Origin: Circinaria calcarea
Lineage: Eukaryota
Assembly (NCBI GenBank): GCA_051942165.1
Contig: JAVECS010000009.1
Span: 1-49,788 of the forward strand
DNA: 49,788 nucleotides
Direction: 5' to 3'
The position numbers and the translations under genes were made by a program. Numbering within the stretch: position 1 is the first letter of the stretch; the number at the start of each line of letters is the position of its first letter. This document shows positions 14,575 through 48,997 of the stretch, in pieces. Under the pieces are notes generated by a model. It saw only the letters and a list, made by a program, of their open reading frames with translations. It was not told where the DNA came from and ran no database searches.

Positions 14575-17500
14575 CTAAATCTTCGCGCCCTTATGCTTCT
14601 TTGGCAATCGCACCAGCCAATAAATCCCCAGTGCCGCAAAGACGTTAAACACCGTGAACGCGGCCATGATGCCCAGGTTTCGCCAGCGGTCCGCATACGA
14701 GCTGCTCACGCTGGCTAGAAATGTGTTGGTATCTGCCACCGCACAAAACCGGCAGTCGCTCGAAGCGTTGGCGTTCGTGAGATACCCCCCGGTGGACGAA
14801 ATATAAGATTGCATGTACTCACCGCAGCTGTTTCCTGGAGTGGGTTGCAGCGTTAGCAGCTCGATGTCCGAACAGGTGGCGATGGTGTTGGCGATGCCCG
14901 TGCTAAGCATTGCGGAGATGAGGTAGGTGAATGGCGAGACTCGGTACATGAAGATCCAGAAGCCGGGTAGCGCGGTTGGGGTTGCGAGCACGCCGTTGAA
15001 TATGAGCATCAGCGAGAAGATTAAGTTAGCTATATTGCCACCTGTTTCGGCGAGCTCGATACCAGCAATTATCATGTGCGCGAAGGTCGAGCTGAAGAGC
15101 AGGAAGGACAAGATCAAGAGGAACATGAGGCCGCCGCGCTCCATGACAGCGTCGGTGGGCTCCGCGTTGCGGTAGAGGCCGCTAAGAGGAAGTTAGATGT
15201 GAGATTTCGTTATATTGGGGAGACGAGGTGGACATACATTGGGTAGTACCAACAGTAAAACATGAAGACTGCCATGAGGGTGTTCCAGCAAGCTTCGACG
15301 ATAATATTGACGCACATGAACGCTTGCCATGAGTAGATTTTGGCGGGACGCTCACGAGACTCGTAAAGGGCGCGTTGAGTAACAAAGTTAGGCATGATCT
15401 GCTGCACAAAATTGCCAAAAATGGTCAACAATATGAAAATCGAGAAAAGCTGGTTTTGGAGGCCTTGCTGGCTATTCTCCGATTTGAAGAAGGAAAAACC
15501 GATATACAATGCCTGCATAGCGTTAGTGGGGAGACTATCAGAAGATAAGGCATTACGAACTGTAAAGGTCGATAAAGCAAACTTGGAGTAAATATACGAA
15601 GGAGTACGCCAGTACTGGGAGAAGATCCTTCGTCCGCATTCCCAAATCTGCACCGAGAATGGCGCCCCATATTCTTCGTATCCGTCCTTATGCGTGTGGG
15701 AAGTTGCCAACGTATCCTGCCCGGACAGTTCCGAGATGAGATCCGCAAGATGCCTGTGAACTTCTTTGATTTCAGGGCTATCACGCCAGACTTGACGCCA
15801 GTCAACATCAGTAGAAGAGCCCGGTGCAGCGCCAATAACCTTCAATATCCATTCGGCGGGATTGGCCTCGATGGGACATAGCGGGCCACCGTTTCGTTCA
15901 AAGTAGCTAATCAGCGTCGAGGATTTCTCCCCAATATCGCCAAAATACACAGTCTTGCCGCCCTTAGAAAGGAACAAGAGACGATCAAATCGCTGGAAGA
16001 GCGTGGCAGAGGGTTGATGAATGGTACAGAGAATCGCCTGGCCATGTTTTGTCAAAGTCTCCAAGAGATTAAGAATCGACCAGGACGTCTGGCTGTCCAG
16101 ACCAGAGGTGGGTTCATCAAGGAAAAGAAGCAATTGCGGCTTAGCAACTAATTCCACGCCGATCGTGAGACGCTTCCGTTGCTCGACGTTCAGCCCTTCA
16201 CCTGGTACACCCACGATAGCATCGGCATACAGTTCCATATCTAGGAGCTCAATGACTTCTTCGACGTAGGCCATCTTTTCGTTGCGTGACGTGCTGGCTG
16301 GCTGCCGCAGAACGGCACTAAACCGAAGAGCTTCTCTGACTGTTGTAGTTGCAAGATGGAGGTCTTGCTGTTGGACGTATCCTGTCTTTCGCTGGAAAGA
16401 AGAATCCCTTTGACGGCCATCAACAAGCATATCTCCAGAGACCACGCCTGTTGTGACTCGGGCTGCGAGCACGTCCAGCAGTGTAGTTTTCCCGGCACCT
16501 GAAACACCCTATGCCAATAGTCAGTTGCCAGGTCTGAACTCAATCCGGCTTTAAACATTACCATGAGCGCTGTGCAAGTGCCAGGCTTCACCCATCCGTC
16601 AACGTGGTCCAGAATTCGCCTATCCTTGCGCTTGATCTTGATATCATAGCAAACATCCTTCCAATGGAAGACTGCGGTCTGCCGATGCATTACCGCACCG
16701 GCTTCCTCGTGTTTCGTGCTCTGTACCGGTTTAAGGTCTGCCGGGCCTTTGCTACCCTTTTCCTCATCAGGAGGGCGTTTGATAACCGTGATGGGAGCAT
16801 GGCCACGTCGGAACAGAAGAACTTCGCCTTTGGACTTGGCTTCCGAGATATATTCTGTTGCGAGAAGGTAAGTAGCACAGAAAAATATCATGAAGGCAAA
16901 GACGATGCCGAGATTCCTACTGTGAGTCAGCAGGGGAGCCTCGACACGAGTCTCAATTAACACAAGCCTACCTCCAAAGATGTGATTGGTAATACTGAAA
17001 GCTCTGGTTGATATACATATCACCGTCGATAACCGCCGCACCAGTAACTGCACCAACCGTGGAGCAAATCTTGTTCAGGCCAGACACGTCGTATCCAGGT
17101 CCCATGGGAACAAATCTTGAACAAGTGAAGATACGACCGGAAAATTCATTAATCATGAGAGCCTCAAAGGCATAGCTGATGGGATCGACATAATTCATCC
17201 ATCGAGACCATCCGAGCATGTCTCTAATCGGAATGGAGAAGCCAGTGTAGATAATAAGACCCAAGACGAGAAGCGCTGCTGGCGCCTGGGCCTGTGCAAG
17301 GGTCCTCGATAATGCACCAATAGTCCGAAAGATCATGGACATGGCCAATGTCGTTACAATTGAGAAAAGGAAGAAAGTAAAGAAGGCACCAGGAGTCCGT
17401 CGCAGATTCGTCAAGAAATATAGCGTCACATTGAATAATATAGCGTTAGTAAACTTGTAAGGTAGATCGCAAAGCATAGATGCCACGGCTTCGGCAAAGG

Positions 17501-19506
17501 GGTGGTAAAGTGCGTATCGAGAATGCTTTTCCACTATAGGTCGTTGGGCGTACAGAGTGAGGATCTGAAAATTGAATTGATAAGCTGGACTTCCATAGGG
17601 TTCAAAGATTCACATACCTCTAGAGCACTTGAAAACGCGTTGAGCAAGACGGCGAAGAAAAGGAGGGCACCTCTGCTATAGAACGAATTTGTATCTGGCT
17701 GGAGATTGTAAAAAACACTGCCAATGATCAAAGCCATCACGGTGTTGCCAATAAGTCCGGAGAGCGCGAGACTCATATCCCCACGTAATCTGTCAAAGCC
17801 ACGGCTAACACAAAGGCCGATTTGTTTCCCGATAGAAAGTGTGTATGGCGATTTAGCTCGTCTATCAGATTATCAGCTTTATCACTTTGAGATATCTCTG
17901 GAGCATATACTGTCCTCTAGATTGCTGCGCTCTGCGAGAAGTAAGAAACTGGCCCACCGACTCGCCTCCGATCGGAAATTGTGTCTCATAAGCTGTAATA
18001 TCCTTTTTGAGCTGAGCATAAGTACTACTCTTCTTCCAAGCTGCGGCGAACTCGTCCGGAGAGCGAGGAACCTTGTTTTCAAAGCCTGTTTTGACTATAC
18101 GTTCCTCGTCACTAGTTAAAGAGGTCAGAAAGTCAGGGGTAGTTTTTCGATTAGGACAGAGGAAGCCCATATCCAGGAAATATTTCTTGGCGTCCTCAGT
18201 CCGCCCGAAATAAATCTGTCGCCCTTCATAAAGAACAACGACCTTGTCAAAGATCTCAACCACAATTAGCCTGCTGCATGTGCCACTTGGGGTACTAGAG
18301 CTTACGTCATATGCACTCTGGGGTGCCTGGTAAATAGCCACACAGGCAGTGACGCCCATGAGGTCAGTCTGCGTCCTTAGAGTCTCACAAAACTCAATCG
18401 CGTTAGCGCTGTCCAGGCCACGAGTGCTGTTGTCCCAGCACTGAAGGGGACTTCCACTAAGGGCAGCTTCTGCAATTGAGACCCGCTTCCGCTCGCCACC
18501 AGAAACCCCACGGACAAAGTCGTTGCCAACCTTTGTGTTGACTGTATGAGAGAGACCGAACAAGGCCAGGGCAACATCTTTCATGTGCTCTGCATATCGT
18601 CCGCGGGATACACCGGGGATACGATTCCGTGGAGCCCTTGCCCGCGCGGCGAAAGCCAGGGTTTGGCCGACAGTGAGCTGTGGGAAGTGGACATCGACTT
18701 CTGCTGTGTAGATGGCTTCGCCACGGAATTGCCCGCGCATCTGGTTCGCTGATATACCTGTGAAATACTAAGAAATAGCCAAGGGATAAGGGAGCACTTC
18801 TACCTTGATAATTAATATAGGACTCAGGCTCGACGTAAGTGCCATTGTTCTCTCCAGAAATGGTTCTCAAGAGCGTTGTACAGCCACTGTGATGAGCATC
18901 AGCTTCAGCCTCGCCAACACTAGTATAGTCTCACCTCCCAGGGCGTCCCAGTACCACCAGCATCTCCCCACTTTTTACAAGCCCATCGAAGCTATCCAGA
19001 ATCTGTAGTTTATTCTTCCCTGACCCCGCGAGACGCCGTACCAAGGACCCGATCGAGAGGATAGAGTTGAAGACGTCCTTTTGGTAATCTGTCGGTGACC
19101 CAAACCCATGCACGCTCAGGTTCCGGAAGGCGATCCCCGCTGTACGCTGCGGATACCTATCCGGATCCCGCGAACGGATAGCCAATGCGTTCTTAATCCA
19201 TGCCCTTGCACTGAAGTTCGGCCCTCGTGGATTAAGCAGCGAGTCCTCACTTAGGCCGGTGAACGGGTTCTCGAGGGTTTCTTCACTGGAGAAGGAGGCG
19301 GATTGCCGCGTCAATCTTATCGCCAATCTGTTGACTTGCTCGTTGAGATCAACGGGGCGTTCATGGTCGTACTCGGGGTTGGAGGAGTTGGAAGAAACGC
19401 CATCAGGTGTTAGCGGAGCGATTTGCTCCCCCATTTGCATGCGAAAGCTTGTTTGCGGGCCATGACCGTGGGTGATGTTAGGGGTTATATTGTCCGGAAG
19501 AGACAT
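14575..19506 (-). CDS. Full-size PDR (ABCG) transporter, multi-exon
   Basis: NBD1 [21 protein letters not shown] and [13 protein letters not shown]2 [27 protein letters not shown] and [13 protein letters not shown]; two TMDs. About 9 GT-AG introns restore a continuous frame. Confidence 0.95.
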
Positions 19507-20118: not shown

Positions 20119-20766
20119 TCAGTGCTTTTGGATGTCGGCGTACTCGCTCGCTAGATCCCCTAGATCTTCCCTGATTTCCTTTCCCTCCACAAACAGTGGC
20201 TTGCAATCCAATAGCACGAATAACATCCTTCCACTCTTGTCAGGGCTGGCGTTACGCCATTTGTGCATTGTTCCTCGGTTCACGCTCATGTCACCCGGAT
20301 ACATCATCTTACTGTCGCCGCTGTCAAGGGTGAACTCGAACACACCTTCAATAACGACCCCGTAATCGATTGACATGGCACGGTGCAGTGGCGACTCCAC
20401 TCCCGGTGCAAAGTCGATCAGGCGTGCGACGGTCCCATTTGGGACATGGATGCCTGGCTTTCAACATCGACATGATTATTAGCAGTTGTAAGCAGGGCGC
20501 TCGGAATATATAAAGATGGGAGTCACCTCATTATCGCGTGCATAAGTAATGTCCGCTTCGTTGTTCATGTCGACTGGGTTTGATGAGGTACTGTAGATTA
20601 TGTTGGCCACGCCTTTGCCGCGGACCATAACCCGATGGTGGCTGCCCTCATCATCACCGACAAAGATACCTTGCCCGGATTCGTTATGAGAGGTGACAAA
20701 ACGTCTCGCAGGCCGCAAGTCATCGGCAGGAAACTTGGTGATGGGACCTGTGTCCGAATTGGCCAT
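20119..20766 (-). CDS. Cupin-domain protein (FogC/VirC/SrdD-like aromatisation partner)
   Basis: [15 protein letters not shown]...[41 protein letters not shown]...[16 protein letters not shown]. Intron 20458-20526. Confidence 0.88.
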
Positions 20767-21062
20767 GCTCAGATGGCAAGGAGAGACGGAGAATGTGGGA
20801 GAAGGTTGGATAGGTATGATAGGGAAGAAGTTATGGTCAAAAATGGGAGGAACAATAAAAGGATACTACTCAGGATCAATGGAAATAGGCCCTTTCAACT
20901 GCTAAGTTGTTGGATTGTTCGTTTCAGGCTTATAGCTTATAGGATCACTTGGATGGCGCAAACGATGTGCGAACTGTGGTCATTACTGAGCGAGCATTTA
21001 TCTAATCCATTCCCGAAGATCTGCGGGCCCCTTTCCCCCAAACGAAGACACCGCCCCGTCAC

Positions 21063-22078
21063 TCACGTCTGCATTTGCAACGTTGCTCCACCATCTACTA
21101 GCCATCCCACACCTGTCACGTAGCTTGCTCTCGGGCTACTCAGAAACATAATGATATCCGATATTTCCTCGGTCTTGGCAATCCTCCCGAGAGGCACGAC
21201 TCGCTCCATTACCCGACCAAGTTCTGGATTGCCTGCCACTGCTGCCTCGATCATCGGTGTCTCGACCCATGAGGGGCATATGGCATTAACTCTAATGCCA
21301 TGTACGGCATTGTCTAGAGCTAAATACGGCTGGCATTAGCTTGCCGCTTCTAGGATGGGACCGCGTCCACGGATTATACTAACCGGCGTTACGTGTCAAG
21401 CCCAGCACCGCGTGTTTTGAGGTAGTGTATTGTACGATATGGTGAGTAGCAACGTACGAGTTGCAGGAGCCGAGATTGATGATCACTCCCCGACCAACAT
21501 CTCGGGGTCCATTACGTCCGGCTATGGTGATTGGAGACTGCTGCTTCATCACCTTACTCACGGCTTGAACGCAATGCAACACCCCACGCACGTTCACTCT
21601 CCAAAAGAGATCAAACTCTTCAATCGAGGCTTCGGCGACCTCTCGGGGTTCTCGGACACCTACCTGCAGGCATAGTGCTTATGTCAGCTTTTCTTCCGCC
21701 GAAGGAGCGAGAAATGAAAAGTTGTATCGTACTCCAGCACTGTTGACGCTGTAATCGATACGTCCAAACGTGGCCACAGCCTTGGCGACCATTTCTTCCA
21801 CGCTCTTGAGATCGGCCACATCAACCCGCAAGGCCAGAGCGCTATATTGAGGATTCGTGGCGAAGGCTATGCTGGAACTCGCAGCTGCTTGAGCCGATTC
21901 CAGATTGAGGTCAGCGAACACAACGCCTTGGGCGCCCTCAGCCGCATAGGCCAAGGCACAGTCCCGGCCAATCCCGCTGCCTGATTCATCAGTCTAATAA
22001 AAGAGGGGATGAGAAATCCAGTGCGGAACACTTACCAGCTCCCGTAACAAGCGCAATCCCGTTGATAATCAGAGACAT
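21063..22078 (-). CDS. Short-chain dehydrogenase/reductase SDR1 (FogB/VirB-like), 4 exons
   Basis: Spliced motifs ALVTGAGSGIG, RIDYSVNSAG, catalytic YTTSK, GIRVNAICPSWVETPM and ASYVTGVGWLVDGG. Confidence 0.9.
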
Positions 22079-22418: not shown

Positions 22419-22449
22419 ATAAAACTGCTCTCAATTTTGTAGTTTTGGA

Positions 22450-22470
22450 AAATCAGAAATCAGAAATCAG
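22450..22470. repeat. (AAATCAG)3 short tandem repeat
   Basis: Three exact copies of AAATCAG. Confidence 0.8.
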
Positions 22471-22494: not shown

Positions 22495-23770
22495 TCAAGC
22501 TTTATTTAATTTCGCGTAGCTGTTAACCAGCTGGTCTAGACGAAACATCCTCGTAAACAGCCAATCCTATCATCGTTATGCATTAGAGAACACAACCACT
22601 CCTGGAAAGGATTTTGTACTTACCCAGAATGTCCGCGGTAAGAATGCATCACACCAGCGTACTGTAAAGGTCGTGGCACCGTACCAAAACCATGCACTCG
22701 GTTTGGTCTTGGTAACTTCGTGCACAACTGCAGAAGCATATTGATGAGGGGTAATAGTCACTGAGTGGCGTTAGAGTTGGAGATTCGCAGGGCAACAGCT
22801 ATCACATACCAGGTGTTCTCCGTACATGGGAAACGAAGGTGTCCTCAATTGGGATATAAAGCGAGTCTACGGGTAGTCTGCGATTGAGATCGCTTTTGAG
22901 GATGTTGGTCCCTACTTCTCCGGATATGACATTTACAACGCGAACACTATCATTTTATGAGCAGGCTGTCTTTTGAGCGGCGATACGGTTAAAACAAACC
23001 CAAATGGCTTTACCTCAACTCGGAGCGTATTTCCGTAATGGTGAAGTGCCGCTTTGCTTGCATTATAGCTCGCTGCTGAGAGTCAGCATTTGGTCATGGT
23101 ATGCTAAACATGCTGCTTTACCTCCGTATACGTATGGAACAATGCCTCCCACAGACCCAATGTTGACAACTACACCCTTCGACTCCACCAGCATTCGGTG
23201 GAAGAATCGAAACATCCGCATAGGTCCAAACACATTGACTGCAAACATCTTCTCCACTTCCCGAATCTCTGTATCCGCCGCTGTCATAGTGTAGCCTGAG
23301 AATCAGCCAGTGACTTCTTTCAAGTCGTGCTGCTAACAGTCTTACATATACCACTAAATACACAGGAGCAGATTGTCAATTCCAGGTCTCCTAATTAGCG
23401 CGCCCTTTTCTTACGCATTGTTCACCAGGAAATCAAGCCGTCCGTTTGTGATATCTTCAACCTGCTTCCTCAGCGCATTGGTATCTTCGTCCTTGGTGAC
23501 ATCTGCGTCAAAGATATGGATATTCCGTTGTGTGAGATGGTCGCGAGGTTCATGGGGAAGCAAGGTCGCGATAACTGTGAGTCCTGAGCGACTTATTAGG
23601 GCTAGATTCCCTCTCGCTGCTAGAAGAAGCGAGTACCCTTTGCTCTGAATGCTTGAGCCAAAGCATCTCCAATGCCACCCTTTCCACAACTTGAGATGGA
23701 TTAGCTTACGACAGTATGTCGACGGTTGGTATGCTTACCCAGTGATTAGGGCAAATCTTTCATCAGTCAT
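22495..23770 (-). CDS. Short-chain dehydrogenase/reductase SDR2 (Ayr1-type fold; FogD/VirD-like), highly fragmented into exons
   Basis: Spliced: MTDERFALITG|CGKGGIG...GRLDFLVNNA|GI|CYTMTAADT...FAVNVFGPMRM...YNASKAALHHYGNTLRVEVKPFG|VRVVNVISGEVGTNILK. Stop TGA at 22495-22497. Confidence 0.88.
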
Positions 23771-24383: not shown

Positions 24384-27300
24384 ATGCCCTCAATGTCTCC
24401 ACACCACGTATCTAAATCCAATAGCGGGGCTTCAACTCCACAGTCGGAGCTAGAAGACGTCCTGCCAAGGTCAAGTGGGAGCCATGCTGGCCAGCCAATT
24501 GCCATCGTTGGCCTGTGTAAGTTCAGCTGTATCAAAAAGGATCAAGACAGTCTGCTAAACACGTTAAATGTCAGCCTGCAAGTTACCTGGGGACAGCACA
24601 TCGCCATCTAAGTTTTGGGATCTAATGGCCAACACTCGCTCTGGACAGTGCGATGTTCCAGGCTCTCGATTCAATGCTGACGCCTTCTACCATCCACACG
24701 GGGTGGAACGACCAGGCAGTATGAATACCACGGGTGGCTATTTTCTCGACGAGGACATTCGAACCTTTGAAAATAGCTTCTTTGGCATTAACAACCTCGA
24801 GGCAACGTACATGGATCCGCAACAGCGCAAACTCCTCGAAGTCGTCTTTGAGTGCCTTGAAGGCGCCGGAGCCCCACTTGATAAAATTTCGGGTTCTAAC
24901 ACAGGCTGCTATGTTGGAAATTTCACTGTGGATTACCAGGTAATGCAAACCCGGGACGCAGAATACCTCAGTCGCTATAGCGCCACTGGTATGGGAACAA
25001 CGATCCTGGGAAACAGGATTAGCCACGCGTTCAATCTAATAGGACCAAGGTAAGCTAGGAGCATCCGACTGTACAGTATTGAAAAGCTCATGGGACTGTA
25101 CCAACAGTCTTGTTCTGGATACAGCGTGTTCCTCTTCACTATATTGTCTGCATGTGGCTTGTACGGCGTTGGAGAATGGCGAGTGCGACGGAGCAATTGT
25201 TGCTGGAGCCAACCTGATACAGTCCCCAGAGCAACATCTTGGTACAATGAAGGCAGGTGTTCTATCAGGAACATCAACATGCCATACGTTCGACTCCTCC
25301 GCTGACGGTTACGGACGAGGAGACGGAATTGGAGCGTTATATCTTAAGAGACTGAATGATGCCATTCGGGATGGTGATCCTATTAGATCGGTAATCCGAG
25401 CATCGGCCATCAATGCGTGAGTAATGTTTTCTGAATCTCCTTACTCTTCGGGGAACAACGATTGCTAAAAGATCAACAGAAATGGGAAAACGCCCGGCAT
25501 TACGCTACCCAGTGCAAACGGACAAGAAGCAGTTATTCGGAAAGCATATGCCAAAGCAGGTATTGGTTTTTCTGAGACGGCTTATGTGGAATGCCACGGG
25601 ACAGGAACAAAAGTTGGAGATGTAATCGAAGGTAAGTTATAGGCACTCACGGCATTTTATATCCCCGAACCTCCGGTCATCAAACTTCATTTGTTGCTTC
25701 TCTGACCCCGCTGACACTGATATACCTACTGAATAGTCGAAGCATTATCACGCGTTTTCAAGCGTCCTGCGCACTCTCCCCTCCTGATCGGCTCTGTAAG
25801 TTCCTATTCGTTAGTGTATAAAACCGCCACAGTAAAACTGACAACTGGTAGGTCAAGACAAATGTCGGCCATTCCGAGGCGGCAAGCGGAATCTCCAGTG
25901 TCATCAAAACGACATTGGCTTTGGAAAAGTCGTTGATCCCGGGTACTGTCGGACTGAATCAGATCAATCCCAAGCTGAAGACCACGGAATGGAACATTAG
26001 TATTCCGACAACATTGACACCTTGGCCAGCCGTTGCTGAATTCAAGGACCACAAACCGATACGGCGTGCCAGTATCAACTCTTTTGGATATGGTGGTGCT
26101 AATGCGCATGTGATTCTTGAGAATGCGGATGCACATGTGCCGTTGGACTATGATGTAGCGAGTAAAGCACAACATACGTTATGCCAGCAAAGCTTCTTGT
26201 TGCTGCCATTCTCCGCTGCTACTCGCGAGTCGCTTGATGCCCGCGTCAAGGATTTCGTTGACTTCGACTTTCACGATGTGAGCGCGCTAGATCTTGCCCA
26301 TACGCTGGGATCCCGACGAACACACTTCGCCAAACGGGGATATATGCTTCTCCAACGCAACGTGCCAATAAATGATGGTCTTTCTACCCAGACACTTCGC
26401 ACTCTACCTAGCGCAGTCAGTAATGGGACTTCCCGCTATGCCTTTGTTTTCACTGGACAGGGATCACAATGGCCGGAGATGTGTAAGGAGCTGTTCTCGG
26501 AGTTCCCGGTGTTCCGTGATGCAGTATCAGATATGGATTGCATTCTACAGTCACTCCCTCACCCTCCTACCTGGACTCTACGGGAAGCTATTCTTGAAAA
26601 TTCAGCTACAAGCTTAATACATCATCCGACGCGTTCACAGCCTGCATGCACAGCAATTCAGGTAGCACTTGTTCAGCTTTTTGCGTCTTGGGGTATCTCG
26701 CCATCGGCCACAATTGGACACTCATCTGGGGAAATTGCTGCTGCTTTTGCCGCGGGGTATTTGTCTACCGCAGCAGCCATTACAATAGCCTACTACCGCG
26801 GCTATGTTGTGGGAAAGCATGTTTCAAACGGTGCAATGATAGCCGCTGGTCTCTCTGAAAATACGGCAACAGCAGAAATTCTTCTAGCAGGTCTCCATAA
26901 CAAGATCCAAGTTGCCTGTATCAACTCTCCCGAAAGTGTAACAATCTCGGGTGATAAATCAGCGATAGATACTTTATTCGGAATCCTTCAGGAAAGGAAT
27001 ATATTCGTTAGGAAGCTAAGAACTGGTGGACAAGCCTATCACTCACATCACATGAGAGCTTTGGGACAAGAATACCAAGATTTGTTGGAACGAGCATTTC
27101 CATATCTCGATGTTTCCAAGAAACTTCCCACTACAGCAATATTTATCTCTTCTGTGACAGCCGAGCTGCAAACTTCAGATCTTGACTCTGCTTATTGGCG
27201 ATCTAACCTGGAAAGTCCAGTTCTGTTCGCAAATGCATTGGAACGGCTGGATAGAGAAGAAGGCCATTTCCACCTGATTGAACTTGGTCCTCACTCTGCA

Positions 27301-32821: not shown

Positions 32822-34263
32822 CTAGTCCGCCAGCTTCGACAGCCTCTGTGGGTGATACGCCTCGGGACCCATGTATGTCGTGATGGAGAGCTCTCCCTTT
32901 TGGAAAGCGCAGGAGATATATGTCTGCACGCCGACGGCGCTATCGAGCGTCCGGTGTGTAGCCAAACTCTCTAGGATACGCATATAGTTGTCGTTGAAGC
33001 GGCCTCTACCGCGCGATTCCATCCACCGAGTTAGTCCGCGTGCAATCTGAAGGTCATCTTTCCCGTAACGGCGGATGGGTATGTAGAATTTAATGTCGGG
33101 CACGGAAGATCCGGGTGCCACATCGAAATAGTACAGATAACCGGACAACAGGATTGGGAGGTCTTTGAAGTTGGCCAAGGCGGCTGGCGCGTACGCGGTG
33201 GAGGCCGGAATCTCCCGCGATGAGGGAAAGTCCTTATCCAAACCAACAGTTAGCTTGATCAGCTCGTTAAGTTCCTCGAGTGCATGATCCATTCCGTGGA
33301 TCTGGCCGCCCATGGTCATGATAGTTCGTACGCTGTCAAAGCTTGTATGTGGGCTCTGGACGTAGAGCTTCATGCGTGACTTGCTAGGCTTGACGCAATC
33401 GATGGCGAGCATGAACGGTTGAAGCAAGGAGCCCTCGACATCCGTCTTGATGAAACTAAATACTTTGTCTAAAGAAGCATTGGCTGGTGCAATGCCTCGT
33501 ACTGCATTTTCCCAAATGTCGAGTCCAACCGGACCTTTCTGACCGAGTTTCTTGGGTGCAAAATACGTCTTGACCGTAAGGCCTTTTTCCAGAAACTCGA
33601 AAGCCAAGGACATGGTAGTAGTTAGGTGTGCGTCAGGTTCGGTGGCGTATTTCTGCTTGTCGGAATCGTAAAAGGCAGCTGCGAAGTGATGAAACCATGT
33701 CAAGTCCAGACTCGGCATTGCCAGACTGAGTTTGTAGAGGAGATCCTTTGTTGAGTCTTGGTTGAGAGGGTCGATGCTCGTGCCCGTGAGTGATCCAATA
33801 GGCTCCATTGTATAGCGGACATCTGGTACTCCATACACAGTATTCCATTTCCAGCTATACTCGATTGGGGTGCCATCGACGGTCAGAAGGCTCTTCCATT
33901 TTGGGGTCTGGCTGGGCGAAGCGCAAGGGCCAAGCCGCGGTACCACGGTGTGATAGTGGAAGAGCATGCCCTCGTATTGATCATGAACGCTGTATCCGGC
34001 TTCGAAAAGCATTACTGCCAGATGTGGACCAGTCAACTGCCACCAATAGTCGCAGTCTGCGTTGCGGGAAGGAAGCCATCGCGAGACCATACTCCATATA
34101 GAAGTAAGGCTGGTGACAGGAACATCATTCCGAGCACAGATTTCGCTACTTGTTGGCTGATAATCACGAGCAACATAAGCGTAGAAAGGGGACTTGTTTT
34201 TGGTCACAGTACCTTTATCGAGCCCGCCTCATTTGGGCTCAAGCCTCGCACTACTTCAGTCAT
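32822..34263 (-). CDS. DMATS-superfamily aromatic prenyltransferase (FogH/AnuH-like)
   Basis: YWWQLTGPHLAVML, WKSLLTVDGTPIEYSWKW, VRYTMEPIG, DPLNQ, MLAIDCVKPSKSRMKLY, YYFDVAPG...PDIKFYIPIRRYG and QTYIS. Exon 1 is 34263-34213, intron 34212-34157. Confidence 0.93.
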
Positions 34264-35654: not shown

Positions 35655-38284
35655 CTATGTGCTATCTCCTATCATCTTGCCCGACACGATAGCTGCCTTA
35701 TGCCTCCTCGTCGCTAATATCTCTTCCCTCCAGAGCCATGCTAGAGCAGTGGTAGCACCGGATCCCAACAGCAGTGTCCCAGCACCCAATAGAACCAAAA
35801 GCGTAATCCATCTCTGCTGCATCATGCCCGCAATCTTGAGATCTGCAAACATATAAAGAACCCACGTGATCGAGCTCAGGACAAAGAACACCTGGTCCCA
35901 TTGTAGCAATGCTCGTGCGCCGCCGATAAACGTATCCAAGCCCTGTTCATATGGGACAAAGATGGTCTCTAAGGAGAAAGGAGCCGTAAATACCAAGTGA
36001 ATCCACACGGTGGCGGATAGCGCAGCGAGCGAGCCCACTGTGATGCGGATTGGCCATATATCTCGCGTCACACCATGGATACGGTTATTCTGCATCGTGT
36101 TCGGCATGACTGTGCATCCAAGTATCCATTGGCCAAGACTCACCCAGACAGGGTACAGATGCCAGACCCACATGCCGTAGTGGCGGATGTTGAAGTCCGG
36201 ATAGAGGAAGGCGACTAAATAAGGGATGTAGTTGCCAAGTACCATGACGGGGAGGACAGAGAGTGTGTATCTAAGGTCCGTGAGACGCATGTCCGACGCG
36301 GAGAAGTTGGAGATGGGTGAGAGGATATAGTGGAGAAAACACCAGAATGGCGTGACGATGCCGATACCGTGCATGGATGCTATGCCAAAGAGAAAAGGGC
36401 TGACGATTCGAGTTAGAGATATATAAGATCAGTATCGGCTGAGGGTCTGTACGTGGGTACCGAGGATACTTACTATCGTAGGGGGGTGAATACATTAGCC
36501 CGCCGAGCTGATTCGATAAGGATAATTGTGTACACAAGGCTCCAGTCGGGGAAGAAAGAAAAGTTCTGGTAAGAGCTTGCAAGGTCGAAACCCATAGTCG
36601 AAGGAGCAAGAACAACGGTAGGGCCGCGGACAAAATCGTCAAAAAACTTCATCGGGTAAAACTTCTCCGGAATGAGGATAGATGATGATACACCCCATGA
36701 AATCTTTCCAGCCTGCAATACCACAGCTCCTGTCTCATATGGAATGACGGACGTCATGGTGCGGAAGGCCCATATGGATAAGAGTAGAATAGGAAGCGCT
36801 CTCAAGGCTCGATACAATTTAACGTCTTTCTTGCTAAGCCCTTGCTCTGAGTTGAATGGCATGGTACTGTTCAGAGACCGTACTGGCGGAGGAAGGTAGT
36901 TTAGTAACGGAGCTCCGATCCACCCATCGCAACTCATATCAACTATACGATCTCCGGCATATGGGAGGACGTAGTGTACCAAGATGTATTCTTTCATGCC
37001 TTTAAGAGCTTGGAGTCGGGTGAGGTCGTTAGCTGCTTTAATCGCTTCAGAGCATCGGGGTTTTCTATTCCGCTGATATTCATTCAAAGCTCGGCGAACA
37101 TCTTCAAAGCTTGGAGGGCTTCCATCATTATGGATGCTCAAAGCTTGGATTGTGTTGGCCAAGGCAGCTGCGCTCTCAATCGCTGCCATCCCACCAACAC
37201 CCATATTTGGTGTCACCTTGTGAACACTGTCACCCAAACAAGCAAACCTTCCCCAGACCCAGTGGTCGTAGTCAGCTTCTTCAGTAGCGACCAAAGTATA
37301 GGACTCTCTATGTTTCCATATGTCACCGAACTTCACGAGACCTTGTGGTAGAATGGCCAGATTGAGGTTTTGCTGTACAAGCTCTTCTGTGTCTGCCTCT
37401 GTAAATCGGGGTATTTCACCGCTCTTATAACGTCGAGCCATTTTAGAAAATAAGAACCAGAACACCCTACCACCTTTACCGGTTATAACCATCGTAGAGA
37501 CGTCTTTCTTGTAGGTGATATCGTAATTGCCACTTGGAAGCTCAGCGACTGGAGATGATATCCCATAGAGACACTTGTATTCTGCAGTCATAGCTAATAA
37601 ATATAATCAGTATCCAGCAAGAGTAGGTCGAGAGCCACTTACAATTCTTTTCTTCTTCAGATATCTTCCCAGGCTCTTCAGCGTCTGCAGCGCGCCACAT
37701 TTCCTGCCGCACCTTACTAAAGACCCCGTCGGCCCCGGCGATAGTATCCCCATGATATGAAGATCCGTCGGCGCAATAAGCTGTTACACCGTTCGCGGAG
37801 TGGTCAACCTTTACCAGACGCTTATTAAGAAGTATTTTGCTCTGATCTAATACATGTTCTGCAAGAATGCGGAGAACTATCTGGCGGTCAAGAAAGCAAA
37901 GTGGATAATGTGTGCTAACGTGCGATACACCGTCAATCAAAGAACAACACCGAGCAGCGTTTCTATTTCTTACCGAGTATGGACGAGCTGAAATCCGTCG
38001 TATCTAGGGAAAATATCATCTCCATTCTCAGCATGGTTCCCAGCGGACACCAGAGGTTCTGTTAGCTTCTCCAGCTCCCCATAACAAGACAACTGTTCAA
38101 GGATACGACATCCATTTGGAGCCAAGCCGATAGAAGCACCAAGTTGTGGCGCAATAACAGACCTCGATTCGAGGAGAACATAATCGATGTCTGCGTGCTG
38201 TAATGCGTTCGCGAGAGTCAGGCCTGCGACTCCTCCGCCTACAATAATGACTCGCAAACCGGTTGACTTTGGAATATCTGCCAT
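35655..38284 (-). CDS. FAD-dependent monooxygenase (PaxM-like epoxidase family) fused to a C-terminal polytopic membrane domain, 815 aa, 4 exons
   Basis: GxGxx[11 protein letters not shown] motif [12 protein letters not shown] and GD motif [17 protein letters not shown]. Exons 38284-37974, 37914-37643, 37593-36474 and 36399-35655 total 2448 nt in frame. The C-terminal ~340 aa is multi-TM with [14 protein letters not shown] and LQWDQ. Confidence 0.88.
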
Positions 38285-39427: not shown

Positions 39428-41349
39428 ATGTTGTCACTTCAAGGGCTTTATATTTGCGTAAAGCATCCTCTATTATTATTGATAAGTTTTTTTATCGTGA
39501 TTATCGCTACCATTGCTCTTCTCGTAAACGCTATTTATAATCGTTATTTTCATCCACTTCGTCATATCCCGGGTCCCTTCTGGGCTAGCGTGACAGATTT
39601 TTGGAAGTTATATATTTGTATTACGAAAGAGTCCCATACCAGAGGCATAGAGCTCCATAGAATATATGGTTTATATATTTAGAAAGTTCTCTTTTGTCGG
39701 TATAATAACTAATTCTGCAATCAGGACCCACCGTTCGCGTAGCGCCAAATCTGCTAGCATTCAACGACCCGAAACTTCTTCCGAAAGTCTATCATAGATA
39801 TGTGGACAAAACGGATTTCTATAGCACAGGTATACTGGGTGATATTGCCCCGCCCTTTCAAACCCTAGACCACAGGGAGCATGCAGCGAAGAGGAAGAGA
39901 ATCGCTCCCTCGGTAACTTTGCAGTGGACCGCTTACATTCACGCAAGTCTAACCTACACAGTTTTCCATGACCAATTTGAGAAAACTGGAAAGCGAAATC
40001 GATGAGTCCATTACTGAATTCATCGACATTCTCAGGGATCGATATGCAAAGACAGGGGTAAGACTCGATTTCGCAGAATGGATAAAGTAACTTAAACCCT
40101 TTCATTAAAATTATAATCGAGAAGTTTAATCCAGCTTTATCTAATCCGAGACTTTCCACGCCAGGTGGTTTGTCTATGATACGGTCTCGCACATGGCGTT
40201 CGGTAAAGCCATCGGTTTTGTACGACAGGGCAAAGATGTGGGCGGCTTGATACAAGCTTTTCATAGCATGGCACCTCTAGCGGGACTTGTCGCCGCACTG
40301 CCCTGGCTGATGAATCCTATACTTAAGAGTCCATTAGTAGGTAAGTTCTTCATGCCTAAGGCTGGTGATGGAACAGGGACTGGGAAAATCATGCTGGTGA
40401 GCATATGCTAAAGAGTATAATTTGTAAACATGGTATATACTAAAACCTTTTAGTACCGTGACAACATGTTGAAACATCGTTTGGAGAATCGCCATTCCGA
40501 GCACCATGGTGACTTCCTGGGCAGGTGAGTCCCGATTGCATTAAATTTAAACGGCTGGATTCTTATTCGAACTCTAAATAGCATTCTGGCTGCTACTAAT
40601 GCCGATGGTACTCTTATGAGTATCGAAGAAGTGAAAACAGAGGCTTTCGTTCTCATGGTCGCCGCAGCAGACACAAGTTCAGCGTTCCTAGGCCCGTTCG
40701 TAAACCATGTTATCCAGGATCCAACGGTGTATGAAAAACTAGTACAGGAAATTCAATCCTTCGAATTAGCTGGAAAACTGTCATCCCCAGTCCCCACAGT
40801 CGACGAGACGAATAACATGCCGTATTTTACTGCTTGCGTCAAAGAGACCCTACGCTTCTCTCCCTCAACTCCATTCATCTTGCCTCGGTACGTATCACGG
40901 GGAGGTATTGACCTCAACGGGACCTGGGTACCAGAGGGAGCCGAAATTGGCGCGAATCCATATATCGTTCATCGGGATTCGGTTACGTTCGGGGAGGACG
41001 CGCACCTATTTTGTCCGGAACGATGGTTGGAATCCGAAGAAAGAGCAAAGGAGATGGACAAGTACATTCTTAGCTGGGGATACGGCACACGGGTTTGCCT
41101 GGGTAAAAACATTGCGCAGATGATGATTCAAAAGCTGTGTTTGCAGGTAAGATCTGACGGATCATTCCCCAGCGTAAGCAGTACTAACCAGATGGCACTG
41201 TGCAGTTGTTTCGGAGCTTCCGCTTTCAGTCGGCCAGTCCCGGGAAACCCTGGCGATGCGCGAATATGGCCATCATGCTGTATTGGGACCAGTGGATCAC
41301 CATTCAAGACCGTCCTCAGGCATTGGGCCTCGAGAAGGGAGAAAAGTAG
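39428..41349 (+). CDS. Cytochrome P450 monooxygenase, 7 exons
   Basis: N-terminal TM plus HPLRHIPGPFWAS, YG|PTVRVAPN, I-helix AAADT, KETLR, PERW and heme ligand WGYGTRVCLG. The last exon (41206-41349) ends in TAG. Confidence 0.94.
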
Positions 41350-42147: not shown

Positions 42148-43911
42148 ATGCATTCCTTCTTTACCACAGCATGCGTTGCCGTGGTGGCAATGCTATCAAG
42201 CGTTCAAGCAGCTCCTTACCCACTCAATCTCGGCCGAGACGATTTTACTTCTCTCTCCCTACGTTCTGCTGACATCGCCACTGAACTAGGCCCGCAGCTC
42301 TCCCGGAATGCCTCCATCTTCACGCAATCAGATCCCCGGTTTGCAAACGCCACGGATCGTTTTCAAGCTTACAGTCCCCCTCAGTTCAGCGTGGTGGTAG
42401 AACCTGGCATTGAGGCAGATGTGGCAACTGTCGTGAGTAGCTCTCACAGTTGATGTTTAGTATTTCCCAGATTGACCGGTTCTCTCTAGGTCAAATACGC
42501 AAACTCTCGCAAGATTCCATTTCTTGCGGTCAACAGAGCGCATGGTTCTACGGAGACCTTGGGTCGATTTACCCAAGGTATTGAGATTCACATGACTACG
42601 CTCAACAAAATCATCCCCAGTGCCGACAAAACTTCTGCGTTTATGCAAGGTGGAGTCTACGGTGATGAAGTGATCCAAACTCTATGGGATATGGGCTACG
42701 TTGCGAGTAAGTTACGACGAATCTTACAGTTTGGGAGTTGTTGCTCACTAGAGTACTCTAGCCACCGGTAGCTGCGGGTGCGTTGGTATGCTCGGACCCG
42801 CTCTCGGCGGCGGCCTTGGTCGTTACGAAGGGTTTTACGGCTTGATCGCTGATAACCTGATCTCTTTGAATGTCGTCCTTGCCAATGGCAGCGCCATCAC
42901 AGTCTCTGACAGGTCATACCCGGATCTATGGTGGGCTATGCGTGGTGCTGGCCATAACTTTGGTATTGTGACCAGCTTTGACATCAAAATTTACAAACGG
43001 ACTGTCGACTCATGGTTCTACGCCGTATACATCTACACCCAGGACAAACTAGAAGCTCTTACCGAAGCAGTCAACAAGCAGATGAACAACGGCACTCAGC
43101 CGAAAGAGCTGATGAATTATGGCGTGTATACCCTTGTTCCCCAAATAGACCCAAAGGAGGTTAGTTGTTTTAATTCTGATATTGATATGTTCCGCCTAAC
43201 ACTCCAACGTGAATAGCCCGTGCTTATCTGGACCTTTTACTACGTCGGTACGGCTCAGCAAGCAGCACCATACATGGCCGCTTTCGTAGAGCTGGGCCCA
43301 GTCTCCATCAGCAATGGGTCAATACCTTACCCAGAGATCCCTGATGCAACCGGAACTGGCTCTAACACTCCTCTATGTGATCACGGGCTCGTTCATATCT
43401 CTTATCCCATCGGTCTCCTCACGTATAACGTCAGCACCAACCGCGCGGTTTATAACCGCCTCCGAACTCTGATATCCGAGGTCCCCGCATATAACATGTC
43501 GGCCATCATCTTCGAAGGCTACTCGCTCGAGGGGGTGAAAGCCGTCGATTCCGACTCAACTGCCTATCCGCATCGCAGTGACAACATCCTCGTGTAAGTA
43601 CATCTCGCCTCAAAGCGGTATGCCCAATCATGGTATGGCTAACAGTCGGAAGTGATGTTGCTGTACTTTATTCCCCAGACAGCTCACTGGATGCTGCAGC
43701 CATCTCATGGGCCAAAGAAACAAAGGAGGTATTCCATGCCGGTGACGAGCCTGGCCGCAAGGAGACGGCGTATGTCAACTATGCGTTTGGCGATGAGCCA
43801 ATTGAGCAGATTTATGGCTACGAGCCGTGGCGGTTGCAGAGACTGAGCGCGCTCAAAAAGAAATACGACAGTAAGAACCGGTTTAGATATTATAACCCGA
43901 TTCCCTTTTAA
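42148..43911 (+). CDS. Secreted BBE-like (VAO/PCMH) FAD-linked oxidoreductase (FogF/AnuG-like), 5 exons
   Basis: Signal peptide MHSFFTTACVAVVAMLSSVQA, flavin-attachment region VNRAHG, GSCGCVGMLGPALGGGLG, PDLWWAMRGAGHNFGIVTS and BBE tail AYVNYA...RLSALKKKYDSKNRF. TATAAA at about 42063. Confidence 0.92.
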
Positions 43912-44611: not shown

Positions 44612-45725
44612 TTAAAGCTCGGTTGTCAAACCCGGTTGGATAGCCTCTAGCTTCTCCACAAGCTCCCCCCAAACCTTCTTCTGCGCACTCTGGCCCTCGG
44701 GGCTGCTAACGTTCTTCCCAAGCGCTTTGCTGTATTAGAGGTTAGCTCTCGCCCCCTCTCGGCTTGTCCTATCGGATTGTGCGCTTACTTTACAATCAGG
44801 GCGTTGCTAAGGAAAATCCCATGCGACTCTGGTCCGGCAACTGTGGCATGGACAAGCGTCCGGCTACCTTCTTCAGCGGTCCACGCCATCAGCGCGCGCA
44901 TGATCTTCATGACCACGAATGTGCTACCGGTTGCGCTGCGCGTCAGTGCCGTGTGGCAGAGCCCCGGATTCATCGTGTTGACGATGACAAAGGGTTTCCG
45001 ACTCGCCGTTCGGTCGGCGATTTCTCGCACGGCGAAGAGCTGGAGGAGTTTGGAGACCAGGTAGCTGTGTGCAAGATCAAAGTAAGCTTGCGATAACAGG
45101 CAAGGGAGAACCGATGCTAGAGGAGGATGAGAACGTACCGGTCTTTCATCTTTGCCGTCTTCTCGTCGTTCAGGGTGTCAAACGAATTGGGCGAGTTCCG
45201 CTCGGTGAATGGTGTGTAAGCGTGTACGCCCGAACCGACAACGGTGAGGACAGGCTCGATGTTCCATTTAACTGAAGACGCGCGGAGTGTCGGGAGGAGA
45301 AGCAACATGAGTAAGGTAGTGCTGACCACGTTTACCGTAATGGTACTTTCGTTGTCTTCGAAAACCTCATACTTCTCCGTGGCAATCCCAGCGTTCAAGA
45401 CGGCAGCGTCAACGCGGGGCAAGGTCGCAACCTTTGCGGCGAACGCCTTGATCGAGTCATAACTAGCGTAATCGATGTTCCAGACCTCAACGACTCCAGT
45501 CCGCTTCGTATCTCTCTCGATCTCTCTCTTGGCCTCCTCACCCTTGGAAACGGAGCGGACGGCAACGATGACTTTCTCGGCTCCCATACGAACAAAGTGC
45601 TTAGACGCTTCCAATCCTAGACCGACATTCGCACCAGTGACGATGATGGCTTGACGTGAGAAATCATTTTGAGGGTAAGGAGGCTTCTGGAACAGCTGGG
45701 TGTAAATGTCATTGAATACGGACAT
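44612..45725 (-). CDS. Short-chain dehydrogenase/reductase SDR3 (retinol-dehydrogenase/WWOX-like), 3 exons
   Basis: IIVTGANVGLG, VDAAVLNAG, R|YLVSK, NTMNPGLCHTAL, TAEEGSRTLVHA and QKKVWGELVEKLEAIQPG. Stop TAA at 44612-44614. Confidence 0.9.
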
Positions 45726-45784
45726 AATGACTGACAGCCTTGAATGAGGTAAGTATGGCTTCGACTAGGGTCTTGACAGTTTGT

Positions 45785-45795
45785 TCGACTTCCGA
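45785..45795. promoter_or_regulatory. TCG-N5-CGA palindrome (TCGACTTCCGA) upstream of SDR3
   Basis: Exact TCG-N5-CGA with one deviation from the spacer consensus; 60 nt from the ATG. Confidence 0.4.
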
Positions 45796-47707: not shown

Positions 47708-48997
47708 ATGCCGGACGTCACTCCGATGCGGAACTCGAACAAACCAACACACAAATACCGGGCATCGTGTGACTCCTGCCACGAAGCCAAAGTACGTTGC
47801 TCTCAAACACGACCTGGCTGTGCGCGATGTCTGAAGCATGGTATTTGCTGTGTATATGGCATATCCCAAAGATCCGGCAAGCATAGTGCGGAGACTTACA
47901 ATGCCATGAAGAGAAATTCAACTGTCGTTTCCGGACCCCCAACACCACCAGCGACAACAGGTACAGAGATTCTAAACTCTTTCGACGATACAGAAGATCC
48001 AACAGATTTTTTCTTATCATCTCCAATCTTCCCAGATCACACCTCAGATCCCCCTGATATATTAGGGCAAAAGCGCAGGCAATGGACCTTTGACAGCAAT
48101 ATCGTGCTCGATGAATGTATCGTTCCTCAATGGGCGCGAACCAACTATAACAGTCATTCCATGCTCGGAAAAGATGAGATCCAGAAGAGCAGCTTCCAAC
48201 AACACCCATCACGGCCTTCCTCGCGCCAATGTTCAGAAGATGCCTTGCAGTCCGCAAGGCATGAATCTATTTATTCCCCACCTCCGGTCTCAACGTCCTG
48301 CGGACCGAATGAGAAAGCTTCAAGCCTTTTCCAAGCAGGACTTATGCCTTACGGTCAAAATAATAAAGATGAAAATCTCTCTTCCAGTCAAGCAAGCACC
48401 CCCTGTACCTCTTGCGCAGCCAATAGTCACGCCCATTTTTCACTTCCCTCTGGAACTTGCCGCTGCAACGAGGTTATTATCGCTCAACTATCTTTACTAC
48501 CCGTGCTGCTCCAGAATGAGCGTCGTGCTTTCGATGTCGAGCTCGTCCAATTTCAGCAAGCGATCAGGCTCTGTGCGAGTGTTCTAGCCTGTTCATGTTC
48601 TGGCAAGGACTACACAACCGTTTTGACTATAAGTATGCTCATTGCTCGAATCGTTGCGGTCTTTGAGCGTGGTGGTGGCAACGCGTATAAAGACGATGTG
48701 ATGTCCAGCGATATAGCAGGCAGGGGCAGTATTAATCGGTCACCAAAGTTTTCCCTCGGCACGTATCAGATCGATGGGGAAGACGAGAGGAGACTTAAGC
48801 AAGAAGTTTGGTGGTTGCAGCTCAGGAAAGTGGAGTCCCTTGTTGCAGGATTTAAGGAAATGTTTAGGAGAGCAGAACAACAGCAAGTGCACCAAGACAT
48901 GCTTCAAGCAGCCGCATGGGAGAAACTATATCTCCTACTTGACCAGAAAGCTCAGGCCGTGAAAAGAGACTGGGTAGCAGCCCGTGGTAATATTTAA
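47708..48997 (+). CDS. Zn(II)2Cys6 transcription factor, AflR-like pathway-specific regulator
   Basis: KYRASCDSCHEAKVRCSQTRPGCARCLKHGICCVYGISQRSGK, plus a C-terminal CRC...LACSCS...FSLGTYQIDGEDE segment typical of AflR-like cluster regulators. No introns. Confidence 0.9.
   Translation: MPDVTPMRNSNKPTHKYRASCDSCHEAKVRCSQTRPGCARCLKHGICCVYGISQRSGKHSAETYNAMKRNSTVVSGPPTPPATTGTEILNSFDDTEDPTDFFLSSPIFPDHTSDPPDILGQKRRQWTFDSNIVLDECIVPQWARTNYNSHSMLGKDEIQKSSFQQHPSRPSSRQCSEDALQSARHESIYSPPPVSTSCGPNEKASSLFQAGLMPYGQNNKDENLSSSQASTPCTSCAANSHAHFSLPSGTCRCNEVIIAQLSLLPVLLQNERRAFDVELVQFQQAIRLCASVLACSCSGKDYTTVLTISMLIARIVAVFERGGGNAYKDDVMSSDIAGRGSINRSPKFSLGTYQIDGEDERRLKQEVWWLQLRKVESLVAGFKEMFRRAEQQQVHQDMLQAAAWEKLYLLLDQKAQAVKRDWVAARGNI

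Follow-up and report, generated by a model that had tools for sequence, protein, structure and literature searches.

Gene content of the locus

The 49,788-bp stretch of DNA analysed here (hereafter the window) is a whole contig (JAVECS010000009.1) of a metagenome-assembled genome of Circinaria calcarea, a lichen-forming mycobiont of the Lecanoromycetes. At positions 14575..48997 it carries eleven genes that very probably form a functional-looking biosynthetic cluster of the alkyl salicylaldehyde derivative (ASD) family, the pathway steps proposed below being patterned on characterised relatives. The initial annotation of this DNA had listed eleven genes over the same interval, and every family named was re-found at its place by Pfam in a scan of 55 stop-to-stop open reading frame (ORF) fragments together with trimmed exons. 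The genes, with lengths in amino acids (aa), are as follows.

14575..19506, minus strand: pleiotropic drug resistance (PDR)-type (ABC-G) transporter; ~1487 aa with 9 introns; leftmost gene of the cluster; Pfam families found on ORF fragments
20119..20766, minus strand: cupin; 192 aa, 1 intron; core ASD set; Cupin_2 at 20119-20460 (E-value, 2e-06)
21063..22078, minus strand: SDR1, a classical short-chain dehydrogenase (SDR); 275 aa, 3 introns; core set; adh_short and adh_short_C2
22495..23770, minus strand: SDR2; 285 aa, 8 introns including a micro-exon arrangement; core set; adh_short at 23411-23734
24384..32007, plus strand: polyketide synthase of the highly reducing type (HR-PKS); 2392 aa, 7 introns; Pfam domains at 24568-32007
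32822..34263, minus strand: dimethylallyltryptophan synthase (DMATS)-type aromatic prenyltransferase; 461 aa, 1 intron (deposited model; exon 1, 34213-34263); Trp_DMAT
35655..38284, minus strand: fusion of a flavin monooxygenase (FMO) with a membrane domain; 815 aa, 3 introns; FAD_binding_3 at 36473-38422
39428..41349, plus strand: cytochrome P450 (P450); 523 aa, 6 introns; p450 at 40529-41431
42148..43911, plus strand: berberine bridge enzyme (BBE)-like FAD-linked oxidase; 511 aa, 4 introns; FAD_binding_4 and BBE at 42490-43911
44612..45725, minus strand: SDR3, a tailoring reductase/dehydrogenase; 326 aa, 2 introns; adh_short at 45117-45764 (E-value, 2.5e-16)
47708..48997, plus strand: transcription factor of the Zn2Cys6 type; 429 aa, intronless; rightmost gene of the cluster; Zn_clus

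The spliced models were built by script and anchored at chosen in-frame positions. All eleven resolved into open frames with GT...AG introns of 46-105 nt, in agreement with the intact frames described in the initial annotation. Ab initio splicing by minimum-cost or codon-usage dynamic programming was also tried and rejected, because real coding sequence was missed and wrong frames were chosen, with loss, for example, of the YxxxK region of SDR1. The models of the fusion, the PKS and the DMATS were validated against database proteins; identity was 100% between the DMATS ORF and the deposited hypothetical protein Q9187_000160, between the large PKS exon and Q9187_000159, and between the FMO exon and Q9187_000161.

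Family motifs are readable in several of the other genes. The transporter fragments (14575-19587) contain ABC_trans_N, two ABC_tran domains, ABC2_membrane, and PDR_CDR, whose order along the fragments of the 1487-aa model is the reverse topology, a nucleotide-binding domain before a transmembrane domain and this pair present twice, of a full-size ABC-G transporter. SDR1 has its adh_short domain at 21679-21993 with both TGxxxGxG and YxxxK in the translation, and one SDR1 exon, compared by sequence with solved structures, matched only generic SDRs. The P450 (p450 E-value, 2.1e-39 for the ORF and 4.7e-39 for the trimmed exon) shows the haem-Cys loop and EXXR; its start codon and last intron are less certain. 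The BBE-like oxidase, with a hydrophobic, signal-peptide-like N-terminus, matches FAD_binding_4 at profile positions 17-87 and then 93-139, spanning the junction of exons 2 and 3. Zn_clus covers residues 20-55 of the transcription factor (E-value, 2.6e-07; ORF 47615-48997). The C-terminal exon choice of SDR2 is uncertain, and if the DMATS began at 34090, where its main ORF has the first ATG, it would be 422 aa long.

Polyketide synthase and the core enzymes

The PKS contains the Pfam families ketoacyl-synt, Acyl_transf_1, PS-DH, ADH_N/ADH_zinc_N, KR, and PP-binding, and hence the architecture ketosynthase (KS)-acyltransferase (AT)-dehydratase (DH)-(degenerate C-methyltransferase (C-MeT)-like spacer)-enoylreductase (ER)-ketoreductase (KR)-acyl carrier protein (ACP). 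The KS Cys/His/His, the AT GHSxG, the DH His, the ER GGVG, the KR Tyr, and the ACP Ser are all readable. Past the ACP the model holds neither a thioesterase (TE) nor a reductive release (R) domain, and it stops ~45 residues beyond the ACP serine, as in the HR-PKSs of ASD clusters. Chain release by the KR domain, which Yang et al. 2023 state for the str pathway in their title (cited in PMC11915489), would explain this lack. The spacer between DH and ER (27900-28700) retains a remnant of the methyltransferase motif for S-adenosylmethionine binding, in which the glycines are replaced. This C-MeT-like region is probably structural and without activity, consistent with a chain that carries no methyl branches.

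The deposited PKS model P0121 (2141 aa) is 100% identical to the window over the large exon. It starts inside the KS and lacks the first 249 residues, including the region of the active-site Cys; these residues, from the region of the first five exons (24384-25851), are restored in our 2392-aa model, and homologues cover the protein from about residue 30. A further difference of two residues between the models falls at the intron whose end is 25851. In an alignment with 11 other homologues, ten aligned with the 2392-aa model end to end (54-66% identity, few gaps), and the eleventh, P0137, is a shorter record that begins at model residue 199. For the nine full-length named homologues among the 12 compared, identity was 54-58%.

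A search with the 1450-aa PKS exon gave 120 listed matches, all of them reducing PKSs (46-100% identity), most of which also carry PF23114, the sdrA-like HR-PKS domain. The named proteins among the matches listed fall at 46-53% and come from P. roqueforti (51%), P. vulpinum, Trichoderma arundinaceum, and many Xylariales, with a srdA-named protein at 48%; metagenome and read-archive sequences reach 61-74%, and a partial Peltigera PKS 71%.

An uninterrupted block at 20119-32007 comprises the cupin, SDR1, SDR2, and PKS genes. HR-PKS, two SDRs, and cupin are described as the defining core of ASD clusters, exemplified by those for sordarial, trichoxide, flavoglaucin, annullatin, stachysalicyloids, and roquesalins, and characterised core proteins are reported there to be at least 43% identical to each other (PMC13463297 and PMC11915489); the count given in PMC11915489 is of at least 493 homologous cores of four genes, from 401 strains. 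The PKS, the protein compared with this benchmark, is 57.0% identical to the P. roqueforti PKS P0152 over residues 36-2389 and 55.6% identical to the srdA-named protein (58.4% to a Trichoderma PKS), the comparison proteins being tentatively identified by name, size, and apparent co-location. The core that the initial annotation had recognised in the HR-PKS without a release domain, the cupin, and the SDRs is thus present and contiguous, and the locus very probably belongs with the sordarial/trichoxide/flavoglaucin/annullatin family of clusters.

Prenyltransferase and related clusters

The prenyltransferase (Trp_DMAT E-value, 7.8e-109) is 100% identical to the database protein P0001, has a solved relative in 9iia (E-value, 5.6e-118), and shares 53% identity with P0025, a P. 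roqueforti protein of 451 aa. The best named proteins among the matches listed are from Xylariales (52-55%). In a FastTree phylogeny of 111 of the 120 matches (nine of <380 aa were left out), the DMATS of the window grouped with ~20 metagenome sequences, the best being 79% identical. Together with the P450, the FAD-linked oxidase, and the third SDR, the DMATS gives the gene complement of the prenylated ASD sub-type, of which fog, anu, and px are examples.

Relatives of the PKS and of the prenyltransferase are apparently co-located in 19 named organisms and on one further contig among the matches listed, and the combination, as far as these matches tell, is a conserved and widespread cluster type. 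The sequence relatives also hint that the cluster is common to several lichen-forming fungi, and that of the window probably has close relatives in other lichen fungi.

As further observations on these relatives, one 57,877-bp contig apparently carries both a prenyltransferase (73%) and a PKS (72%), and ~20 prenyltransferases (P0002-P0020) and ~15 PKS fragments (P0122-P0137) from metagenome or read-archive assemblies are 60-79% identical to those of the window.

Several points weigh against the reading as an ASD cluster. Eight of the eleven gene models have Pfam continuity and family motifs in the translations as their basis. SDR2 contains an 8-nt micro-exon (23346-23353; region 23296-23414) with introns of 61 and 50 nt on its two sides, each of which begins with GTAAGA, and no single-intron alternative preserves the frame there; the NNAG-region sequence that results from micro-exon splicing is normal for the family, and the micro-exon may be either real or a sign of decay. 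The DMATS stands apart from the well-supported clade of the AnuH candidate and Xylaria proteins in the phylogeny. P0152 and P0025 are probably AnuA and AnuH, on the basis of organism, size, and an apparently shared 2.81-Mb contig; the size of AnuH is given as 451 aa in PMC10144355 (Table 6). It is worth considering that the cluster is silent, partly decayed, or smaller than drawn here, with the PDR pump and possibly the fusion as mere neighbours. The SDR2 micro-exon would agree with this, the anu cluster is described as silent in its own host (PMC10144355), and no prenylated alkyl-salicyl lichen compound was found in the literature, in a search made noisy by the match of 'sordarial' to 'Sordariales'. 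We regard this explanation as quite improbable, since all eleven frames are open with catalytic motifs present, and the database PKS and prenyltransferase sequences that are 70-79% identical, together with the Peltigera PKS, argue for a gene set maintained in related fungi.

Structure of the flavin monooxygenase-membrane fusion

The model of the fusion is identical, letter for letter, to the deposited 815-aa protein P0241. Residues 1-~430 constitute a class A flavin monooxygenase, in which GxGxxG, DG, and GD motifs are readable, and residues ~450-815 a multi-pass membrane domain; FAD_binding_3 (PF01494; E-value, 3.7e-19) covers residues 11-345 only. A single exon encodes both the end of the flavin domain and the first hydrophobic helices, and a splicing artefact therefore does not account for the fusion. 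The AlphaFold2 (AF2) model of the whole chain is predicted with confidence as one body (mean predicted local distance difference test score (pLDDT), 92.9; predicted TM-score (pTM), 0.90). The fold of the flavin domain matched HpxO in Foldseek (E-value, 2.3e-20; target-normalised TM-score, 0.85), and its relatives by sequence and fold include NicC, TrlE, VibMO1, 3-hydroxybenzoate 6-hydroxylase, and salicylate hydroxylase, besides TropB, SorC, PhqK, and FqzB.

The membrane domain consists of ~365 residues in ten helices, within the ~350-400 residues of Pfam-less multi-pass enzymes of the type discussed below. Its exon (exon 4) matched no Pfam family at E-values up to 1, and 19 free-standing homologues gave chance-level Pfam matches only (best E-value, 0.025). 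Among 1.84 billion representative sequences, the membrane exon has 461 homologues at E-values up to 1e-3, 59 of them at up to 1e-30, which include fused (~720-840 aa) and free-standing (~340-410 aa) forms. Eight charged residues conserved in this family (Glu555, Arg558, Arg606, Arg640, Asp736, Asp754, Arg792, and Glu793) are all kept in the protein of the window, and the four acidic ones (Glu555, Asp736, Asp754, and Glu793) are conserved in 32-34 of the 34 aligned fused and free-standing sequences. The free-standing homologue P0292 is also predicted by AF2 to be all-helical (pLDDT, 91; pTM, 0.91). The fold of the membrane domain had no Foldseek match in the Protein Data Bank (PDB) at E-values up to 0.001, and VIA-align against 48,161 chains returned at best an unrelated coiled protein (Z-score, 5.5; root-mean-squared deviation, 6.9 over 144 residues); in the ESM Atlas, residues 440-815 retrieved ascomycete clusters only, with a score of 0.82, below the lead level. 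No solved relative of the domain was thus found in these searches, which is not proof of a new fold.

The free-standing protein P0365 matches the membrane exon with an E-value of 3.1e-26, and members of its 90%-identity cluster bear the names 'Citreoviridin biosynthesis protein' and 'Paxilline synthesis protein A'. CtvD, AurD, and AstD are described as membrane-bound epoxide hydrolases that form tetrahydrofurans from bis-epoxides, the products of the FMOs CtvC, AurC, and AstC (PMC12312803). AscI, acting with its partner AscH, is described as a Pfam-less multi-pass membrane enzyme that cyclises an epoxide in ascofuranone biosynthesis, for which the conserved acidic residues Asp61, Asp296, and Glu353 are essential (PMC6486709), and CtvD is counted among the representative 'domainless' enzymes (PMC11109268). 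By way of the names in this one homologue cluster, the membrane domain is tentatively linked to the CtvD/AurD/AscI/PaxA type of epoxide hydrolase/cyclase, and an FMO fused to such a domain would fit, as indirect support for a candidate role, epoxidation followed by ring closure. Enzymes of this type lack a Pfam family, and our searches gave no solved relative; genome-mining tools therefore tend to miss them.

Distribution of the fusion

A search with exon 3 for longer proteins (at least 652 aa) gave 47 matches of 687-861 aa, most of them of 740-860 aa, from many classes of Ascomycota and from one Mycena; an FAD-binding domain is present in every one. In an IQ-TREE phylogeny of 60 fused proteins, the fusion of the window lies in an 18-member clade (SH-aLRT, 98) together with the fused proteins of A. 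cavernicola, A. terricola, and A. insuetus and with StrN ('FAD-dependent monooxygenase'; P0258, 836 aa) of the Stachybotrys str cluster, which has the same fused architecture. In A. cavernicola, A. terricola, and A. insuetus the fused homologue is apparently co-located with a relative of the PKS; a prenyltransferase relative is apparently co-located as well in A. cavernicola, and the locus tag of the fused protein adjoins that of the prenyltransferase in A. terricola. Neither a report of such a fusion nor one of lichen ASD clusters was found in our full-text literature searches.

For the metagenomes, a scan with an alignment retrieved 80 loci, of which five were examined (flanks of up to 10 kb, ORFs of at least 110 aa); a scan with the single protein retrieved no relative. 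None of the five loci with fused homologues (33-40% identity) had PKS or DMATS neighbours, indicating that the fusion family is not confined to ASD clusters. Near such distant fused homologues we observed a membrane protein with a CFEM/fungal-rhodopsin domain and a protein with a Tle1-like phospholipase domain (L010:7742-8780 and L003:18153-20036), without obvious link to secondary metabolism.

The case for an epoxide-opening role of the fusion has to be weighed with evidence that tells against it. The flavin domain is at least as similar to aromatic hydroxylases as to epoxidases. The tie to CtvD consists of the automatic names of one homologue cluster, and 19 of the 20 clusters of free-standing homologues looked up are nameless or 'hypothetical'. 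No P. roqueforti fused protein was among the 47 matches, and no Penicillium member among ten fused representatives inspected. Deletion of anuJ, which encodes an 818-aa protein labelled 'aromatic ring hydroxylating', is reported to leave annullatin formation unaffected (PMC10144355). The anuJ deletion, the five metagenome loci, and the top sequence and fold matches from HpxO to salicylate hydroxylase would suit a plain aromatic-ring or decarboxylative hydroxylase whose membrane domain serves as an anchor or in some other role, or else a bystander like anuJ. Such a role seems unlikely to us. A ten-helix domain of ~365 residues with eight conserved charged residues far exceeds what an anchor requires, and the same domain exists free-standing, with CtvD/PaxA names in one cluster. 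The confidence of the two-domain model as a single body, and the position of the ASD-linked fused proteins in one supported clade, likewise speak against it.

Flanking genes and intergenic regions

The cluster lies between two housekeeping genes, just as the initial annotation had placed it.

9405..13886, plus strand: left boundary, Crb2/Rad9-type DNA-damage checkpoint gene (Tudor_3, Rad9_Rad53_bind, and BRCT); outside the cluster
49137..49787, minus strand: right boundary, mitochondrial ribosomal protein L27 (Ribosomal_L27 E-value, 2e-28), cut by the contig end; outside the cluster

Further left, Pfam identified NOB1 (2-1066) and a tRNA-intron endonuclease (7106-8476); the view to the right of L27 is limited by the end of the contig. 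In the housekeeping flank, a 670-aa ORF and ORFs of 168 and 150 aa, all Pfam-less, occupy 3175-6196 on the plus strand and are probably one intron-containing gene, for which no family predicts a function. A tRNA scan found no tRNA in the window.

Within the cluster, the 1.4 kb between the DMATS and fusion genes (34264-35654) holds no evident gene and only two Pfam-less ORFs, one of 104 aa (34583-34897, minus strand) and one of 155 aa (35389-35856, plus strand), the latter overlapping the end of the fusion gene and running ~200 bp past 35654. The divergent fusion and P450 genes are separated by a 1.1-kb AT-rich gap (38285-39427), which is likely their shared promoter; the GC content is 0.416 for 38001-40000 and 0.45-0.51 elsewhere. 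Another 1.9 kb without genes (45726-47707) separates SDR3 from the transcription factor gene.

Proposed pathway

In the pathway that we propose from characterised relatives, the HR-PKS would build a partly reduced linear chain. Because the enzyme has no TE or R domain, this chain is probably released reductively through the KR domain, as for str. SDR1, SDR2, and the cupin would then act on the chain by oxidation and aldol cyclisation, giving an alkyl salicylaldehyde or a salicyl alcohol, by analogy with the roles of VirA-D summarised in PMC12720273. SDR3 may adjust the aldehyde/alcohol state, the P450 may hydroxylate the ring or the side chain, and the DMATS would C-prenylate the phenol. The BBE-like oxidase would re-oxidise the benzylic alcohol to the aldehyde, or carry it on to an acid or lactone; a sequence of reduction, decoration, and re-oxidation is described for flavoglaucin (PMC11669671), and hydroxylation and lactonisation for annullatin (PMC10144355 and PMC11375781). 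In the fusion, it is most likely that the flavin domain epoxidises an olefin and that the CtvD/AurD/AscI-type membrane domain opens the epoxide, which would yield an O-heterocycle from the prenyl group, as the initial annotation proposed with a dihydrobenzofuran or chromanol product, or else a diol or cyclic ether on the polyketide side chain. Activation of the cluster would fall to the Zn2Cys6 factor, and export of the product possibly to the PDR pump.

DMATS enzymes need an aromatic acceptor, and at least an aromatic intermediate is therefore expected. The end product might nonetheless be non-aromatic: a dearomatised epoxycyclohexenol or hexahydrobenzopyran of the cytosporin-xylasporin or trichoxide type, or a never-aromatic, palitantin-like cyclohexanone, with the FMO and the BBE-like oxidase engaged in ring oxidation. 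This would accord with the Xylariales affinity of the DMATS, since px clusters of very similar inventory give xylasporins and cytosporins (PMC11161606), and with the dearomatising hydroxylases TropB and SorC among the nearest solved relatives of the flavin domain; moreover, the palitantin pathway is a case against our assignment in that the core four enzymes need not give an aromatic ring (PMC13463297). Even so, the cupin epoxidases of epoxyquinoid pathways (PMC12720273) would require a second cupin, as in px, and a single cupin gene was found in the window, which also showed no PaltF-like ene-reductase. We thus consider a non-aromatic end product unlikely and retain a prenylated, aromatic alkyl-salicyl compound as the expected one.

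A more specific possibility, offered tentatively, is that the 815-aa protein and the StrN-type clade are single-chain epoxidase-cyclases, in which a prenyl or polyene epoxide of a membrane-associated alkyl-salicyl intermediate would be passed directly to the fused domain and opened regioselectively to give a dihydrobenzofuran, chromanol, or tetrahydrofuran. If so, this would supply an enzyme for a ring closure to which no enzyme is assigned, or which is taken as spontaneous, in the published anu and px schemes. The lichen cluster would then lead to an alkyl-salicyl compound, prenylated and O-cyclised, for which there is no report from lichens. If the fusion is a plain hydroxylase, the cluster is an ordinary one.

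Mycobionts of lichens are slow-growing, and for most of their clusters no product is known. The present cluster can be placed with good confidence in a pathway family that is well studied, and heterologous expression is therefore a practical approach to it. The oxygenase-membrane fusion is its most unusual component; the host and the fusion together lift it above the routine. Membrane epoxide hydrolases and cyclases are described as hard to study in vitro, and a natural fusion that recurs in one ASD-linked clade would be a defined pair for studying how a membrane cyclase receives an epoxide from a flavoenzyme. Such work may also show which enzyme closes the O-heterocycle in prenylated salicyl metabolites.

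Comparison with characterised systems

The initial annotation had matched nine of the genes by family to the inventory fogA-I of the flavoglaucin cluster, and the match holds when the papers' descriptions are followed, with FogG taken to be the third SDR. Like the window, the fog cluster of Aspergillus ruber has an HR-PKS (fogA), two core SDRs (fogB/D), a cupin (fogC), a P450 (FogE), an FAD oxidoreductase (FogF), and a prenyltransferase (FogH), as described in PMC11669671, and a transcription factor (FogI; PMC10144355). It differs from the window in having neither an FMO-membrane fusion nor an ABC pump. No A. ruber protein was among the PKS and prenyltransferase matches listed, which places fog at a greater distance from the window than the anu-like or Xylaria-like clusters.

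The anu cluster of P. roqueforti corresponds by family in its HR-PKS, SDRs, P450, BBE-like oxidase, DMATS, and Zn2Cys6 factor, and has the 818-aa AnuJ at one end (PMC10144355, Table 6); the fusion of the window is likened to AnuJ by size alone, and the PDR pump is a difference. AnuG and FogF, for their part, are only 27-28% identical (PMC11375781). According to PMC10144355, no gene is assigned to closure of the dihydrobenzofuran ring. With a PKS identity of only 51-57%, a DMATS identity of 53%, and a DMATS outside the AnuH clade, the cluster of the window is not an orthologous copy of anu. The novelty suggested in the initial annotation is overstated: the cluster is no one-to-one copy of a characterised one, but its kind is common, given the published four-gene cores, the 19 organisms with the pairing, and the occurrence of the fusion elsewhere.

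The str cluster of Stachybotrys, for stachysalicyloid, is an ASD cluster with an HR-PKS and, according to the title cited in PMC11915489, release by the KR domain; its StrN is 38% identical to the fusion of the window over exon 3 and 44% over the membrane exon. The px clusters of termite-associated Xylaria, for xylasporin and cytosporin, share with the window, by description, a KS-AT-DH-ER-KR-ACP HR-PKS, an ABBA prenyltransferase, three SDRs, a cupin, a P450, FAD oxidoreductases (two in px), and a transcription factor. Unlike the window, they have two cupins, a transporter of the major facilitator superfamily (MFS), a phosphopantetheinyl transferase (PPTase), and a TE-domain protein, and epoxidation of the prenyl group followed by spontaneous closure of the chromene ring is proposed for them (all PMC11161606). 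In the pathways of CtvD, AurD, AstD, and AscI, the membrane enzyme acts after a separate oxygenase, whereas in the window oxygenase and membrane domain form one polypeptide; the context also differs, being an HR-PKS salicylaldehyde pathway here, and an α-pyrone polyene or farnesyl meroterpenoid pathway for CtvD, AurD, and AscI.

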